From: a virus
Lineage: Duplodnaviria; Heunggongvirae; Uroviricota; Caudoviricetes
IMG/VR virus record: IMGVR_UViG_2531839180_000007
Reading direction: 5' to 3' (one strand)
Length of the DNA: 40,019 nt
The notes under the pieces were generated by a model. That model had not been told where the DNA came from, ran no database searches, and saw only the letters and a program-made list of their open reading frames with translations. This document shows, piece after piece, positions 22,430-32,726 of the stretch (its first letter is position 1; each line of letters begins with the position of its first letter). Position numbers and translations under genes: made by a program.

Positions 22430-22978
22430 ATGTTTGATTTTACTCATTTTGAAGAGTTGACTTTAGCATCCCATCAACCCGATAGAATAATGACTATAGT
22501 TCGGTCCCAAGATGACATTGGTATCTATCTCCGCACTCACCTTTTGATTGAACAAATCTTGGAAGCTTGGATTATCTGTGCCTCTGGTAACAGGGATTTC
22601 TTCAGCGGTTTTGGCGAAAATATCAACATGGATTTTGCCATTAAAGCTCAGCTTGCGATGAACTATGGGATGAGCTCAGAGCTAAACAAATTTATTCGAA
22701 GGTTCAACAACTTCAGAAACAAACGTTCACATCAAATTAACAACTCTGACATCACTAACAGTGAGATTGACTCCTTAACAAGTCTAATGGAGCACGGTTA
22801 CCCTGATAGCTTGACCCCCATTAGAGATTTTAAGCTTGGGGTTTACGGAGCAGAAACTAGGGTTGTAAGTTTCACGGGATCCTCTACAAGCTTACGCGAT
22901 AAGCTCATTATGTTATTCGCTATGTTTTCCATGAGGGTACATTACGAAGCAAAATGCTTAAGCACGCCACAGAGCTAG
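22430..22978 (+). CDS. Hypothetical protein, first gene of the AT-rich accessory cassette (182 aa)
   Basis: ATG with an upstream aagga RBS; G+C visibly lower than flanking genes; opposite strand to the late operon; no motif recognised. Confidence 0.6.
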   Translation: MFDFTHFEELTLASHQPDRIMTIVRSQDDIGIYLRTHLLIEQILEAWIICASGNRDFFSGFGENINMDFAIKAQLAMNYGMSSELNKFIRRFNNFRNKRSHQINNSDITNSEIDSLTSLMEHGYPDSLTPIRDFKLGVYGAETRVVSFTGSSTSLRDKLIMLFAMFSMRVHYEAKCLSTPQS

Positions 22979-23056
22979 GCTCTACTTTGATGCTCTAATA
23001 ACATTCGATTATTTGCATTTCCTGTTGCATTAGCGACCTGCCATTGAGGAGTAAAA

Positions 23057-23617
23057 ATGATCCATACGGTACATTTTTTGACAGATGTTACAGTTGCCTC
23101 TGTAACTAATCTGATGGATGTCTGCTTAAAAGCAGTTTCAAATACTAATCAACCAGCAACAGAAATTAAGCTCTATATTTCCAGCAAAGGTGGAGATACA
23201 GTTTCAGGCTTTACTGCTTACAATTTTTTAAAGTCACTTGGTGTAAAGGTTACTACGCATAACCTCAGTAATGTTGAATCAATCGCAAACGTGATCTATA
23301 TGGCTGGAGAAGTGCGAACTGCCAACCCACTTTCTCGCTTCCTTCTTCACCCACTGCATTGGGGGTTCGCCGCACCCAGCGCAGATCACCTACGATTGAG
23401 AGAATGGGCTTCATGCCTCGATGACGATCTAAATCGATTTATTCAAATCATGGATATTGAAACAAAAAAGAAAAATCCAAGTGAGATTGCTGATTGGAAG
23501 GATTTGATCACTTCGGCAACCATCCTTCATCCCGGAAGGGCCTCCGAGTTGGGAATTGTTCATCAAGTCGAGGCTGCAACCATACCCACGGAATCGATCC
23601 GCTGGTGGGTACTTTAA
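23057..23617 (+). CDS. ClpP-family (S14) serine protease paralog, 186 aa
   Basis: Aligns by eye to E. coli ClpP: FLTD versus FLTG, IKLYISSKGG versus IYLYINSPGG, a Ser in ..VESIANV.. at the catalytic Ser position, LLHPLHWG versus MIHQPLGG (His), and WKDLI versus RDRFL (Asp). gaggag RBS upstream. Confidence 0.7.
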   Translation: MIHTVHFLTDVTVASVTNLMDVCLKAVSNTNQPATEIKLYISSKGGDTVSGFTAYNFLKSLGVKVTTHNLSNVESIANVIYMAGEVRTANPLSRFLLHPLHWGFAAPSADHLRLREWASCLDDDLNRFIQIMDIETKKKNPSEIADWKDLITSATILHPGRASELGIVHQVEAATIPTESIRWWVL

Positions 23618-23638: not shown

Positions 23639-23667
23639 GCGGGCTTAGAAGCCCGCTCTTTTTTTCT
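23639..23667 (+). terminator. Intrinsic terminator of the accessory cassette
   Basis: gcgggc-ttagaa-gcccgc hairpin followed by tctttttttct. Confidence 0.7.
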
Positions 23668-23902
23668 CAGCCTGCCTGATATCAGCCTTATCCCGATTGC
23701 ACTGGCCAAGTGCCGATAGCAGACTGACATTTAAATTAAGACTATTACCCCATGTCATATTATCCGGAATGTCAGGATAAGGCGTTTCAGCCGTCAGGGT
23801 GGCTGGTAACGGAACCACCGGAATGCTCACGTAAACTGTTCGCGTACTTCCGCAACCGCTCAGCAGCGGCAGCAGGCACAAGGCCTGCAGCACAATCATC
23901 AT
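23645..23902 (-). CDS. o-spanin (Rz1-like outer-membrane lipoprotein)
   Basis: Lipobox LLPLLSGC and Pro-rich mature region; overlaps the 3' end of the i-spanin gene in another frame. The start is taken at an internal Met; the ORF extends to 23968. Confidence 0.6.
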   Translation of the reverse strand: MMIVLQALCLLPLLSGCGSTRTVYVSIPVVPLPATLTAETPYPDIPDNMTWGNSLNLNVSLLSALGQCNRDKADIRQAEKKRAGF

Positions 23903-24179
23903 CCGCAACAGCCACTTTGATATCTTTCTGGGTTCTCTGTGACTCCAGTGCGATCTGCTGTTTTGCATGCTGGTTAACCTCTATAACTGTATTGACGAGT
24001 TGCAGTGATTGCAGGACGTTACGGGTAATGGCTGTTGCAGATTCAGCATTTTGTACAGCCTCATCAGCACGTTTCTTTTCGTGCTGATATTTGCTGTAGT
24101 AGTGGTTGGCAGACCAGATGAAAGAACCAATGACAGTAAAGAAGAATGCAGCGATAACCAGCTTATAGCTCAACTTCAT
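23787..24179 (-). CDS. i-spanin (Rz-like)
   Basis: 130 aa; N-terminal transmembrane segment followed by predicted coiled coil; directly downstream of the endolysin. Confidence 0.65.
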   Translation of the reverse strand: MKLSYKLVIAAFFFTVIGSFIWSANHYYSKYQHEKKRADEAVQNAESATAITRNVLQSLQLVNTVIEVNQHAKQQIALESQRTQKDIKVAVADDDCAAGLVPAAAAERLRKYANSLREHSGGSVTSHPDG

Positions 24180-24639
24180 TTACCACCCCACCTGCCTCTT
24201 TAAACCGGGAAATCAGGTCACTGATTTTATGTTCATACTGACCGTAACCTGCACCAGGTAACGACGCCCAGATATTGCTGCAACGATCGATAGCCTGACG
24301 GATATCACCGCGATCAATCATCGGTAAAGCGCCACGCTCTTTAATCTGCTGCAATGCCACAGCATCCTGGCTTTTGGGAGAGAAGTCTTTCAGGCCAAGC
24401 TGCTTGCGGTAGGCATCCCACCAACGGGAAAGAAGTTGATAACGGCCTGCAGCTGTTGACTTGAGTTTCGGATTTAGCGTGACAAGTTTGCGAGGGTGAT
24501 CGGAGTAATCAGTGAATAGTTCACCACCAACAATAACGTCATAACCGTGGTTATGTGTCGGTTGTCGCCCGTTATCCGTTCCCTCTGACCATGCCACCAT
24601 ATCCAGGAAAGCTTTACGCTGGGAATTTAGTACCTGCAT
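24163..24639 (-). CDS. R: Endolysin, lambda R-type lytic transglycosylase
   Basis: 158 aa, near-identical by recall to lambda R (..NQRKAFLDM.AWSEGTDNGRQ.T.NHGYDVIVGGELFTDYSDHPRKLVTLNPKLKST..). Confidence 0.9.
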   Translation of the reverse strand: MQVLNSQRKAFLDMVAWSEGTDNGRQPTHNHGYDVIVGGELFTDYSDHPRKLVTLNPKLKSTAAGRYQLLSRWWDAYRKQLGLKDFSPKSQDAVALQQIKERGALPMIDRGDIRQAIDRCSNIWASLPGAGYGQYEHKISDLISRFKEAGGVVNEVEL

Positions 24640-24642
24640 AAA

Positions 24643-24924
24643 TTACTCCTTAGAGCCACCAAACTTGTTACCGATTACTCTCATTGCAGCCCCACGAATA
24701 GCATCAACACCGATCAGCCCCACCCCACCACCAATGGCAACAGATAGTGATTTAGGCCATCCGACATACTCAAGAGCGGATGCAAAAGTCAGCGTCAGAG
24801 CACCACAGAGCAAAATCTCGAGCGTTTTTCGCTTCCAGCCACCCCCCCGCCAAAATAGGCAATGCGCAAGCCAGCCATAACGATCGACATAATCACTGCA
24901 CCCAGCGGTGTGTCTCCACGCCAC
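24643..24924 (-). CDS. Holin-like membrane protein, C-terminal frame (two predicted transmembrane segments)
   Basis: 93-aa ORF with hydrophobic segments and a charged C-terminus ..IGNKFGGSKE immediately upstream of R. Overlaps the upstream ORF across a G7 tract. Confidence 0.5.
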   Translation of the reverse strand: MAWRHTAGCSDYVDRYGWLAHCLFWRGGGWKRKTLEILLCGALTLTFASALEYVGWPKSLSVAIGGGVGLIGVDAIRGAAMRVIGNKFGGSKE

Positions 24925-25064
24925 CAGCTCTGTAACAGTTCAAGTAAATCAGGCCAGGAATGAGGATCGTTGTGCATTTCATAATTCCCACCTCCGATTA
25001 CCGGAAGTGCCACAAGTAAAAGGGAAAGAAGCTGGTTATAACGCTGATTTGCAGAAGTGCGCAT
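24795..25064 (-). CDS. Holin-like membrane protein, N-terminal frame
   Basis: 89-aa ORF with two hydrophobic segments; its frame and the downstream holin-like frame overlap at the homopolymer 24842..24848. Confidence 0.45.
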   Translation of the reverse strand: MRTSANQRYNQLLSLLLVALPVIGGGNYEMHNDPHSWPDLLELLQSWWRGDTPLGAVIMSIVMAGLRIAYFGGGVAGSEKRSRFCSVVL

Positions 25065-25088
25065 AAAAAAGGCCGCCCGTAGGCGGCC
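25063..25088 (-). terminator. tR'-like intrinsic terminator between the Q-proximal small gene and the lysis genes
   Basis: Minus-strand hairpin ggccgcc-tacg-ggcggcc followed by TTTTTT. Confidence 0.65.
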
Positions 25089-25106
25089 TCAAAAATCTTA
25101 TTTTCA

Positions 25107-25310
25107 TCATCGCGAAGGATGGAGGGTTTTATGACGAGGTTTAATGTAAACCTCATAGGAATGAGACAGCTTGTCTACTTCTCTAATTGGTAATTCCCAA
25201 CCAGTATTCAACAGAATACTTTTCTGAGTAGCAGACACTAACACTGAGCCAATCTCAATATTATTTGCAATTGCCACGACCTTCTTGGTCGTGTGTTTAC
25301 TATTTTGCAT
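25107..25310 (-). CDS. Hypothetical small protein (67 aa) between Q and the tR'-like terminator
   Basis: Strong RBS aaaggagatcacc before the ATG; AT-rich; followed by an intrinsic terminator. Confidence 0.55.
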   Translation of the reverse strand: MQNSKHTTKKVVAIANNIEIGSVLVSATQKSILLNTGWELPIREVDKLSHSYEVYIKPRHKTLHPSR

Positions 25311-25502: not shown

Positions 25503-26255
25503 CTATCGTGTCACTTTTTGCAACTGTAACTCTGCGAATGCTTCTTCCTGCCAGCACTTTGTTACCAGTTTATCAATGACGTCTGCATATCCTTTGTACC
25601 ACTGATAATCCGTCAGGTCTGGTACCAGCTTCTGGACATGAAGCCGCGCCAGTGTGGTTGGTAAACGGCTAAACCGGTTTCCATTGCAACGCCCACAAAT
25701 CTTATAAACAGGCGTGCCATGAAGCCGGGTTCTTTTTTCATCCAGGACAATACCTTTACCCTTACACCCTCTGCACGCGGTGCTGACTTCTCCCTTACCA
25801 TGGCAATGCTGACATAGTTCCTTCACCCACTCTTCCTTGATAACAGATTCCCCGCTTCTGGAGTGTTTCACCACTTCGCGCAATACATTATGAAATCCAG
25901 TACCAGCACAATGCTCACAGCGAGCCTTACTTGCCGCAGACCTGGAATAATCAGCAAAGGCAAAATTCACAAGGTAAGGGATGATCTGTAACCGGGTTTC
26001 TTCACTCAATTTGTTCAATGTCGGGTTATCCAGTGCCATCGCGTAATTGAGCAGACCTTCAATCGCAAACTGAGGATCCTGAACACCAACTTTTGCCAGG
26101 AATAAGGCAAACCCAAGCGGTGCTTTCGACTGCACCATCCCCTGCGCAGCCATCACATCCGTAATCGTTAAACCACCTGAGCCTGTCGCCGGTGCGTCAT
26201 CGCTCAATTTTGGAGATTTTGGGGAGTAATATTTTGGTAAGGCTTCAAGGTTCAT
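25503..26255 (-). CDS. Late-gene antiterminator Q (Zn-binding, lambdoid Q family)
   Basis: About 250 aa with Cys-rich motifs (CEHCAGTG, CQHCHGKG, CRGCKGKG, CGRCNG); ggaga RBS before the ATG at 26255; positioned upstream of the lysis module. Confidence 0.7.
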   Translation of the reverse strand: MNLEALPKYYSPKSPKLSDDAPATGSGGLTITDVMAAQGMVQSKAPLGFALFLAKVGVQDPQFAIEGLLNYAMALDNPTLNKLSEETRLQIIPYLVNFAFADYSRSAASKARCEHCAGTGFHNVLREVVKHSRSGESVIKEEWVKELCQHCHGKGEVSTACRGCKGKGIVLDEKRTRLHGTPVYKICGRCNGNRFSRLPTTLARLHVQKLVPDLTDYQWYKGYADVIDKLVTKCWQEEAFAELQLQKVTR

Positions 26256-31479: not shown

Positions 31480-32172
31480 ATGAACATAGGAAACCGAGTC
31501 AGACAACTTCGCCAAGCGAAGAACATGAAAATCGCCGATCTCGCTGAAGCAATAGGAGTAGATGCGGCGAACATCTCGCGCTTAGAAACGGGTAAGCAAA
31601 AACAATTTACCGAACAAACACTGAGTAATATTGCCAAGAGCTTAGGTGTTGATATTGCTGATCTCTTTACCTCTGCCCTCAAAAGTAATACTGTATATAA
31701 AAACAGTAATAATGAGGATGTTGCGCAGGTGAAGGATGTGTTCCGTATTGAAATGCTGGATATCAGTGCCAGTGCGGGAAATGGCCTTATCCAGGGCGGT
31801 GATGTCATTGATGTGATTCATGCCATCGAATACAGAACTGATAATGCTGTATCAATGTTCGGCGGACGACCAGCCAATCACATCAAAGTTATCAACGTTC
31901 GTGGGGACAGTATGTGTCCAACCATTGAGCCAGGAGATCTCATCTTCGTTGATGTCAGCATCAATCAGTTTGATGGTGATGGTATATATGTCTTTGGTTT
32001 TGATGACAAAATATACGTTAAAAGACTTCAAATGATTCCTGACAAACTGCTGGTGATTTCTGATAACCAGATTTACCGTGAATGGGGAATTACTAGCGAA
32101 AACGAACACCGATTTATGGTCTTTGGAAAGGTCTTAATCAGTCAGTCGCAAACCCTTAAGAGACATAATTAA
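31480..32172 (+). CDS. cI: CI-type prophage repressor (HTH plus S24 LexA-like autopeptidase)
   Basis: 230 aa; N-terminal HTH (..MKIADLAEAIGVDAANISRLETGKQ..); C-terminal S24 domain with an Ala-Gly cleavage site and GDSMCPT Ser and KRL Lys motifs. Confidence 0.85.
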   Translation: MNIGNRVRQLRQAKNMKIADLAEAIGVDAANISRLETGKQKQFTEQTLSNIAKSLGVDIADLFTSALKSNTVYKNSNNEDVAQVKDVFRIEMLDISASAGNGLIQGGDVIDVIHAIEYRTDNAVSMFGGRPANHIKVINVRGDSMCPTIEPGDLIFVDVSINQFDGDGIYVFGFDDKIYVKRLQMIPDKLLVISDNQIYREWGITSENEHRFMVFGKVLISQSQTLKRHN

Positions 32173-32277: not shown

Positions 32278-32443
32278 TTGTTCCAGACCAACTACAGGAT
32301 TACAACAAAATCTGGTTGCAACACGGTGCACGGTGCATGTGTCGTAAGAGGTCAGTAAATGTCAAAAACGAACAGGCAGGACGCCCACGAAGTAGCCGCC
32401 GGTGGCGTATGAATGACCGGATGATTCGTTAGCAACAAAAAAA

Positions 32444-32519: not shown

Positions 32520-32726
32520 ATGCACAAAACAGAACCAAAAATCGTCGCGCCTGGCTACACAGATGAGGAAATTTATGAGTGGATGACAAAGAAGCTGGCA
32601 GCTATAAACCAGCTTCGTGAAGTGCTGTCTTATCGACAGGAAACAATAGACTCCTTAAAAAAACTGGATCAGGAAATCACGGTTTTATCACAGGATGTTA
32701 CTTTAGATATTGTGCAGACAAATTAG
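32520..32726 (+). CDS. Hypothetical acidic small protein (68 aa), first gene after the pL/nut-like region
   Basis: ATG at 32520 preceded by a gaggagg RBS at 6-nt spacing; sequence MHKTEPKIVAPGYTDEEIYEWMTKKLAAINQLREVL.. Confidence 0.55.
   Translation: MHKTEPKIVAPGYTDEEIYEWMTKKLAAINQLREVLSYRQETIDSLKKLDQEITVLSQDVTLDIVQTN

Follow-up and report, generated by a model that had tools for sequence, protein, structure and literature searches.

A G7 homopolymer splits the lambda-family holin gene of an SfV-like prophage of Escherichia coli TW10509: a probable undercall at a length-variable G tract

The S protein of phage lambda is a class I holin with three transmembrane domains (TMDs) and, like the S 'holin/anti-holin' of phage SfV (NP_599081.1), it belongs to the same Pfam family (PF05106) as the holin of the Escherichia coli TW10509 prophage described here. 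The lysis cassettes of lambda and SfV also have the same order as that of TW10509, i.e. Q, terminator, S, R and Rz/Rz1. Lysis by a lambda-type endolysin depends on the holin, and lambda S nulls (e.g. Sam7) are lysis-defective, with endolysin and virions accumulating inside the cell. The TW10509 holin is about 90% identical to SfV S at the nucleotide level over the aligned region and, in a weak alignment (E 2e-6) for which the lambda S query was a sequence without accession, about 25% identical to lambda S; this alignment places a run of five glycines (Gly5) in the TMD1-TMD2 loop. Unlike in lambda S, the TW10509 loop consists of this Gly5 run, there is no in-frame dual start, and the deposited record has a frame break at the G run. 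If the broken frame were real, the predicted phenotype would be that of the Sam7-type nulls, with a truncated holin next to an intact cytoplasmic endolysin and intact spanins. Sam7 is an amber point mutation, whereas the TW10509 lesion is a 1-nt homopolymer contraction which could revert by slippage, and its phenotype is a prediction only.

A base missing from the longest homopolymer of a region, with one gene split into two CDSs, is typical of 454 and Ion Torrent undercalls. Pyrosequencing accuracy drops with homopolymer length, which results in consensus frameshifts (PMC5822529, PMC3277595). Unlike a plain artefact of this kind, the tract discussed here is of variable length in clean short-read assemblies as well, which forbids taking an artefact for granted. 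The locus also resembles the poly-G contingency loci of Campylobacter, Neisseria and Haemophilus, in which an intragenic tract of at least 8 Gs switches an ORF by +/-1 changes and occurs in several lengths among near-identical strains. Unlike those loci, the TW10509-type tract is recent, rare and derived from synonymous changes, and selection for mutability is not in evidence. To our knowledge, E. coli is not noted for simple-sequence phase variation, and we know of no mechanism for phase variation of a holin in E. coli prophages; no direct precedent was found in the literature on homopolymer frameshifts in holins. A further parallel is the thymidine kinase gene of herpes simplex virus (HSV), for which +/-1 'savior indels' in a G7 string and low-level compensatory frameshifting have been described (PMC5009743). 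There too, the G-string lies in coding sequence, most of the product is lost through +/-1 indels, and slippage of the ribosome on the string could bring back a small amount. The HSV case differs in being a eukaryotic, drug-selected system, and compensatory frameshifting is not needed for the TW10509 holin. A trace of full-length holin might be produced by ribosomal slippage on the G run, but since a holin must reach a threshold concentration, this would probably not be enough for lysis.

The prophage and its lysis cassette

The window, i.e. the whole stretch of 40,019 nt that was analysed (IMG/VR record IMGVR_UViG_2531839180_000007), is 100% identical to E. coli TW10509 (GCA_000190995.1, scaffold GL872204.1), a cryptic clade I strain from human faeces (PMC7716201). 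It contains an SfV-like prophage with an HK97-type head and a contractile tail, which adjoins ybhC. Compared to the prophage of KK19-02, its nearest complete-genome relative, the window shows 98.95% identity over 34.9 kb with two indels, and the G run is the only 1-nt indel in this alignment. Of the 50 annotated CDSs of the KK19-02 prophage, 49 are full-length and stop-free in the window, the holin being the sole broken gene. A prophage decayed by many lesions was rejected on the basis of these intact CDSs, and a generally error-ridden assembly was rejected based on the presence of just two indels.

The lysis cassette lies on the minus strand. It is preceded by the gene of the late antiterminator Q (25503..26255; 250 aa, intact) and by an intrinsic terminator at 25069..25090, a stem-loop of 9 bp (7 GC) with a T-tail, which separates the holin from the Q-controlled late promoter region and is in the same position as the annotated terminator of phage SfV. 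Next come S, R and Rz/Rz1, which gives S the position of a class I holin. Directly downstream of the holin is the endolysin R (24163..24639; 158 aa, intact), which is 100% identical to the KK19-02 protein and matches the lambda lysozyme structure 1AM7 (E 8.6e-96), in agreement with the earlier note, which had called this gene a lambda-type R endolysin from the letters alone; the Pfam search gave no match for it at E <= 0.01. R carries no signal sequence and, given this lack of an export signal and the match to lambda lysozyme, needs a holin. The cassette is completed by an Rz-like inner-membrane spanin with a DUF2570 domain (23787..24179; 130 aa) and, embedded in it, an Rz1/LysC-like outer-membrane lipoprotein spanin (23645..23902; PF23793, 66.8 bits), both on the minus strand and intact.

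Several other features of the region were observed. Between Q and the pre-holin terminator, a conserved 67-aa ORF (25107-25310, minus strand) is 100% identical in KK19-02; it has no Pfam match in the contig tables, and the protein collection wrongly groups its homolog P0008 with the holins. The opposite (plus) strand carries a moron-like insert at 22430-23617, flanked by Rz/Rz1 and the HNH/terminase genes and made up of a 182-aa ORF and the gene of a ClpP-family protease (23057..23617). Relatives are referred to below as type A when they share the window's own 3' haplotype and as type B when they carry a second 3' haplotype; in the type-B relatives YZ3E2001 and L184, an unrelated 124-aa gene takes the place of the ClpP-family insert. 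The other indel relative to KK19-02 is a 7-bp tandem duplication (ACGGTGC ACGGTGC, around 32325-32338), located in the intergenic region between a cI-like repressor gene (31480..32169) and a 68-aa ORF (32520..32723). Adjoining yfdP, RefSeq lists a 'frameshifted' hypothetical pseudogene in both KK19-02 (L005, 11532-11842) and YZ3E2001 (L189, 14016-14326), corresponding to about 33.2-33.6 kb of the window. The TW10509 gene call near yfdP is a 203-aa YfdP-family ORF (L186, 1102-1713), compared to 120 aa in relatives.

The split holin gene

Two minus-strand ORFs are found upstream of R. The first (24795..25064) has 89 aa, starts with the ATG at 25064 and corresponds to GenBank EGB71967.1. The second (24643..24924) has 93 aa, a GTG start and the -1 frame, and is represented in GenBank by a 56-aa piece with a TTG start (EGB71966.1). 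Their overlap of 130 nt (24795..24924), which the two ORFs read in different frames, contains a G7 homopolymer on the minus strand (24842..24848; C7 on the plus strand), located in the Gly5 loop codons between TMD1 and TMD2. This run is the frameshift site and the sole G/C homopolymer of at least 7 in the 40-kb window. The upstream frame reads TAT TTT GGC GGG GGG GTG GCT... across it and the downstream frame ...GGT GGC TGG AAG. Adding one G joins the two as ...TAT TTT GGC GGG GGG GGT GGC TGG AAG..., encoding Y F G G G G G W K. The sequence therefore bears out what the earlier note had described, namely two ORFs overlapping by about 130 nt around a C7/G7 run, which one added G would fuse. The fused product, on the other hand, is shorter than the roughly 145 aa then estimated, with 140 aa when counted from the ATG at 25064 and 111 aa from the start used by relatives (24977).

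The two ORFs are complementary halves of a single lambda-family class I holin gene. The 5' fragment matches positions 1-41 of PF05106 (Phage_holin_3_1, 'lysis protein S') with 31.3 bits, and residues 22-87 of the ORF at 24643..24924 match profile positions 34-99 with 62.9 bits, both above the cut-off of 23.8 bits. The intact KK19-02 holin, which is identical outside the run, matches positions 1-99 in a single stretch with 97.8 bits. The whole gene S spans 24643..24977 on the minus strand, with its ATG at 24977-24975 and its stop codon at 24645-24643; it measures 335 nt in the window and 336 nt (111 aa) when intact. A 336-nt CDS annotated as 'phage holin, lambda family' is present in the relatives KK19-02, GN25, FDAARGOS_497, YZ3E2001 and SfV, and in relatives the holin CDS begins at the MHNDPHSW codon corresponding to the window's ATG at 24977. 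As encoded with G7, the frame shifts after codon 45, and the 5' fragment (24795..24977, minus strand) has 60 aa, i.e. the N-terminus, TMD1 and GGG, followed by 15 out-of-frame residues (VAGSEKRSRFCSVVL) and a stop. Conversely, the ORF at 24643..24924 contains real holin sequence only 3' of the G run (TMD2, TMD3 and the C-terminal tail); its first ~25 codons (VAWRHTAGCSDYV...) are TMD1 DNA read out of frame, and no Shine-Dalgarno sequence is present upstream of it. These Pfam halves, together with the G8 of near-identical relatives, support the core idea of the earlier note, i.e. a single holin split by a 1-nt homopolymer shortfall which one G repairs.

The repaired 111-aa protein shows Kyte-Doolittle peaks at about residues 25-42, 54-69 and 78-98, based on the hydropathy profile only, and thus has the three TMDs and the small size (about 105-115 aa) of a class I holin; what the gene lacks in the record is an uninterrupted frame, with G7 where G8 is required. 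Three to four hydrophobic segments had been proposed before. The repaired protein has three, and the supposed fourth is part of a 29-codon N-terminal extension of the 89-aa ORF (24978..25064, minus strand), which covers the spacer from the terminator to the holin ribosome-binding site. The ATG at 25064 has no Shine-Dalgarno sequence and sits within the T-tail of the intrinsic terminator. Because of this position and the start at 24977 in relatives, the extension and its hydrophobic stretch are spurious; the region upstream of the holin start is not conserved in SfV.

The start used by relatives is preceded by a Shine-Dalgarno sequence, GGAGG (24991..24995, minus strand), which was read from the sequence and is conserved in these relatives. 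The ATG nearest to it (24980..24982, minus strand), which precedes the holin ATG by 5 nt, is out of frame with the latter here (ATGAAATG, A3). The Met-Lys-Met dual-start motif is therefore absent from this allele, which reads ATGAAATGCAC. In A4 alleles, the upstream ATG is in frame and gives a 113-aa dual-start form (MKM...). A dual start defines the regulation of lambda S rather than membership of the family. A second length polymorphism is observed at the holin start (24975-24995, minus strand; compare L115, P0004 and P0009). A3 (GGAGGTGGGAATTATGAAATGCAC) is found in the window, in KK19-02 and in others, and in such alleles the ATG nearest to the Shine-Dalgarno sequence opens a 32-codon ORF. 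Sixteen fetched loci carry A4 (...ATGAAAATGCA), with both ATGs in frame in a lambda S107/S105-like dual start. In SfV-type alleles, the upstream ATG is out of frame (GAGATGACGAAATG) or absent. A single A thus decides on the presence of a putative antiholin isoform.

Origin and length variation of the G tract

A megablast search of 5,426 complete E. coli genomes yielded 56 full-length matches, all of 512 nt against the 511-nt query and all with a single 336-nt CDS annotated 'phage holin, lambda family'. In the alignment, the common Gly5 allele is GGC GGT GGT GGT GGC, with FDAARGOS_497 and SfV reading GGTGGTGGT, while KK19-02 has GGC GGG GGG GGT GGC, i.e. G8. Comparison of these alleles traces the G8 tract of a small sublineage to two GGT>GGG changes, both synonymous. 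In the complete genome of GN25 (L002, around 1752-1780), a third synonymous T>G change has produced an in-frame G11 (GGC GGG GGG GGG GGC), which is presumably even less stable than G8.

The tract is found in three strains (KK19-02, YZ3E2001 and GN25) of approximately 800 complete E. coli genomes with the site, in all three in frame. A sample of 166 loci from IMG/VR and metagenomes comprises 155 with GGTGGTGGT, 8 with GGAGGTGGT, 2 with other substitutions and 1 (L053) with G8; interrupted Gly codons (GGT or GGA) are thus present in 163 of the 166. A scan of GTDB representative genomes for the G-run site found nothing, and no off-frame alleles were seen in the IMG/VR and JGI metagenome scans. 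Only when the larger Logan/ENA/NCBI collection was queried with exact proteins did off-frame alleles surface. The same kind of look-up returned the intact 111-aa holin on 69 contigs for type A and on at least 1000 for type B, for which the G8 protein is identical to that of the common GGT allele, so that a product look-up cannot separate the two. Taken together, these counts mark the G tract as rare and recently derived. It is a hotspot of mutation and not a switch that has been conserved.

Within this small group, the tract varies in length, and the run lengths of the recorded products were confirmed in the DNA. The exact 89-aa product of TW10509 (G7) is recorded on 9 contigs. Type-B G7 was found in contigs from SRR3931205, SRR7271453 and SRR25644104. 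In the first two of these, none of 37 6- and 7-mers is miscalled, and over 20.3 kb and 11.6 kb, respectively, they differ from YZ3E2001 (G8) at this homopolymer only. L184, L187 and L188 are the G7 loci from clean assemblies. For the G9 product, the records name 9 contigs (13 read on retrieval), on both haplotypes and in SPAdes, MEGAHIT and Logan assemblies. G10 was recorded on one contig (two read; L199 and L200), G6 on one (L201), and an in-frame G11+T allele of 112 aa with six Gly on two (L202). A G5 product was not found by exact-product look-up. On type A, G7, G8, G9, G10 and G11 occur in a 3.1-kb region with about 6 SNP columns; on type B, G7, G7, G8, G9 and G9 occur in a 10.75-kb region with 2 SNP columns. 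Lengths from G6 to G11 are thus found on nearly SNP-free backgrounds, i.e. several lengths among close relatives, as in phase-variable genes, and length changes are about as frequent as all substitutions in several kb of flank. By-product as it is, this variation marks the G8 tract in related prophages as a true hotspot of length change.

Integrases and attachment sites differ between the window (36842-38105) and YZ3E2001 (L189, 10037-11155), although their late and lysis modules are near-identical. The prophages of TW10509 and KK19-02 sit beside ybhC, in the neighbourhood of lambda attB, and that of YZ3E2001 sits at tRNA-Thr, next to proA. Near-identical modules on different backbones indicate that the G-tract holin allele has moved between prophages by recombination, which also explains why G8 is found on two 3' haplotypes.

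Cause and consequences of the missing G

Two GGT>GGG changes have turned the Gly5 loop of the prophage S holin, normally GGC GGT GGT GGT GGC, into an uninterrupted G8. Read as G7 in the record, the run shifts the frame and leaves a 60-aa stub with TMD1 only and a 3' part that cannot be translated; with the frame shifted at G7, ORF finders report two overlapping ORFs. The missing G is most likely an undercall in the flow-chemistry (454-type) reads of a 2010-era draft. The real TW10509 prophage would then have G8, an intact holin and normal holin-endolysin-spanin lysis.

The earlier note had listed a sequencing error in a homopolymer among the possible causes, and we consider this the most likely one, with the balance of the evidence leaning towards an undercall, because TW10509's own read set undercalls long homopolymers. 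One of the 9 contigs with the 89-aa product is the Logan assembly of SRR031804, which shows 0 substitutions in 20,270 nt compared to the TW10509 assembly and represents the same strain. It contains five single-base gaps, all undercalls of A/T 6- or 7-mers. Miscalls increase with length, from 0 of 292 4- and 5-mers (0%) to 2 of 19 6-mers (11%) and 3 of 8 7-mers (38%). Such length dependence is most likely flow-chemistry (454-type) behaviour, the platform being deduced here from the error profile of SRR031804. No other homopolymer of the region would be as long as a true G8, and in KK19-02, too, G8 is the longest of the locus. Furthermore, type-A relatives encoding the intact protein have G8 at all four sampled places (24 contigs read), as does IMG/VR locus L053 with 0 mismatches in 10,960 nt, and among the sampled relatives type-A G7 is restricted to TW10509 and its own run. 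Among the matches listed, early data account for four of the seven G7 places (9 contigs read), namely the TW10509 assembly, SRR031804, SRR031075 and SRR030604, and for none of the nine G9 places (13 contigs read).

Against an artefact stands the quality of the deposited TW10509 assembly. It is correct at all five homopolymers that SRR031804 missed, which makes the deposited consensus better than the raw run, and it agrees with KK19-02 at every A/T 7-mer in the 34.9 kb shared. A genuine slipped-strand deletion from G8 to G7 in the TW10509 prophage, i.e. neutral decay without adaptation at a hotspot made by synonymous changes, is therefore a serious contender, though short of an even chance. The accuracy of this consensus at all checkable homopolymers up to 7 speaks for it. 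So do the clean assemblies with G7, G9 (13 contigs, both haplotypes), G10, G6 and in-frame G11+T, and given that lengths from G6 to G11 occur on backgrounds which hardly differ (for type A about 6 SNP columns in 3.1 kb, for type B 2 in 10.75 kb), it is entirely plausible that TW10509 has undergone a real -1 slip. In that case, the holin would be truncated after TMD1, the endolysin, which lacks an export signal and matches lambda lysozyme, could not reach the wall, and the prophage would be lysis-defective like Sam7 until a +1 slip. However, this explanation has to account for a type-A G7 confined to TW10509 and its own run with G8 in all sampled relatives, for reads which systematically undercall long homopolymers and for the over-representation of early-era data among G7 calls. 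The frameshift-inactivated holin of the earlier note holds for other strains, where real slippage does occur, and is a possibility in TW10509 itself.

Tracts of at least 8 Gs are a classic phase-variation substrate in Campylobacter, Neisseria and Haemophilus, and slipped-strand phase variation had also been suggested for this locus. The variation itself was found: many independent samples show lengths from G6 to G11, some in frame and others not, on backgrounds that are nearly the same. An evolved switch, on the other hand, is not supported. It is improbable, though conceivable, that a sizeable minority of G-tract lysogens are holin-off (G7, G9 or G10) and able to slip back to G8 as a reversible mutational switch. 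That the poly-G is kept as an evolved contingency locus, because reversible holin on/off benefits the prophage or the host, is more improbable still. The tract is rare and derived (G8 at 1 of 166 sampled loci, and 3 strains of about 800 complete genomes) and, with 163 of the 166 loci interrupted, is not maintained across the gene family, while length changes about equal in number to the SNPs in the flank are, given known homopolymer indel rates, as expected of a neutral G8 hotspot.

Programmed -1 ribosomal frameshifting or transcriptional slippage, by which a regulatory split would yield full-length holin from G7, has hardly any probability left. A -1 slip of tRNA-Gly in G7 would indeed re-pair perfectly and give the exact wild-type Gly5 protein. 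However, the zero-frame C GGG GGG is no canonical X XXY YYZ heptamer, and the predicted fold of the 72 nt downstream does not surpass that of shuffled sequence (z = +0.36). Nor is there conservation of the off-frame state, since homologs are overwhelmingly single in-frame ORFs, and off-frame alleles of both the -1 and the +1 kind exist, which no single recoding mechanism could serve. For lack of a canonical heptamer, downstream structure and conservation, this mechanism was rejected. The genuine two-gene holin/antiholin pair in overlapping frames, which the earlier note had also considered, is just as improbable and was rejected: two ORFs of about 90 codons with hydrophobic segments do lie upstream of the endolysin and GenBank lists two CDSs, but they are complementary halves of one Pfam domain, the first starting within a terminator tail and the second on out-of-frame TMD1 codons without a Shine-Dalgarno sequence, and relatives 99.9-100% identical outside the run have one 111-aa ORF, with none of more than 1000 contigs showing two conserved genes. 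The alignment to intact homologous holins, proposed in that note as a check, accordingly gave G8 and a single 111-aa ORF in near-identical relatives.

As it stands in the record, the TW10509 gene is a disrupted member of a known family, an ordinary lambda-family holin. EGB71967.1 and EGB71966.1 should be annotated as a single gene, or as a pseudogene if G7 is confirmed, and the draft alone is no basis for calling the otherwise complete TW10509 prophage lysis-defective. Two synonymous GGT>GGG changes have made the longest homopolymer of the prophage, a site which both misleads sequencers and mutates. If G7 is true, induction would, by analogy with lambda S nulls, yield particles without lysis until a +1 slip restores G8. 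If holin-off alleles are common and reversible, estimates of prophage inducibility and phage release would be affected in the E. coli lineages bearing the tract, and if the tract does act as a switch, phage release would be silenced in a heritable but reversible way.
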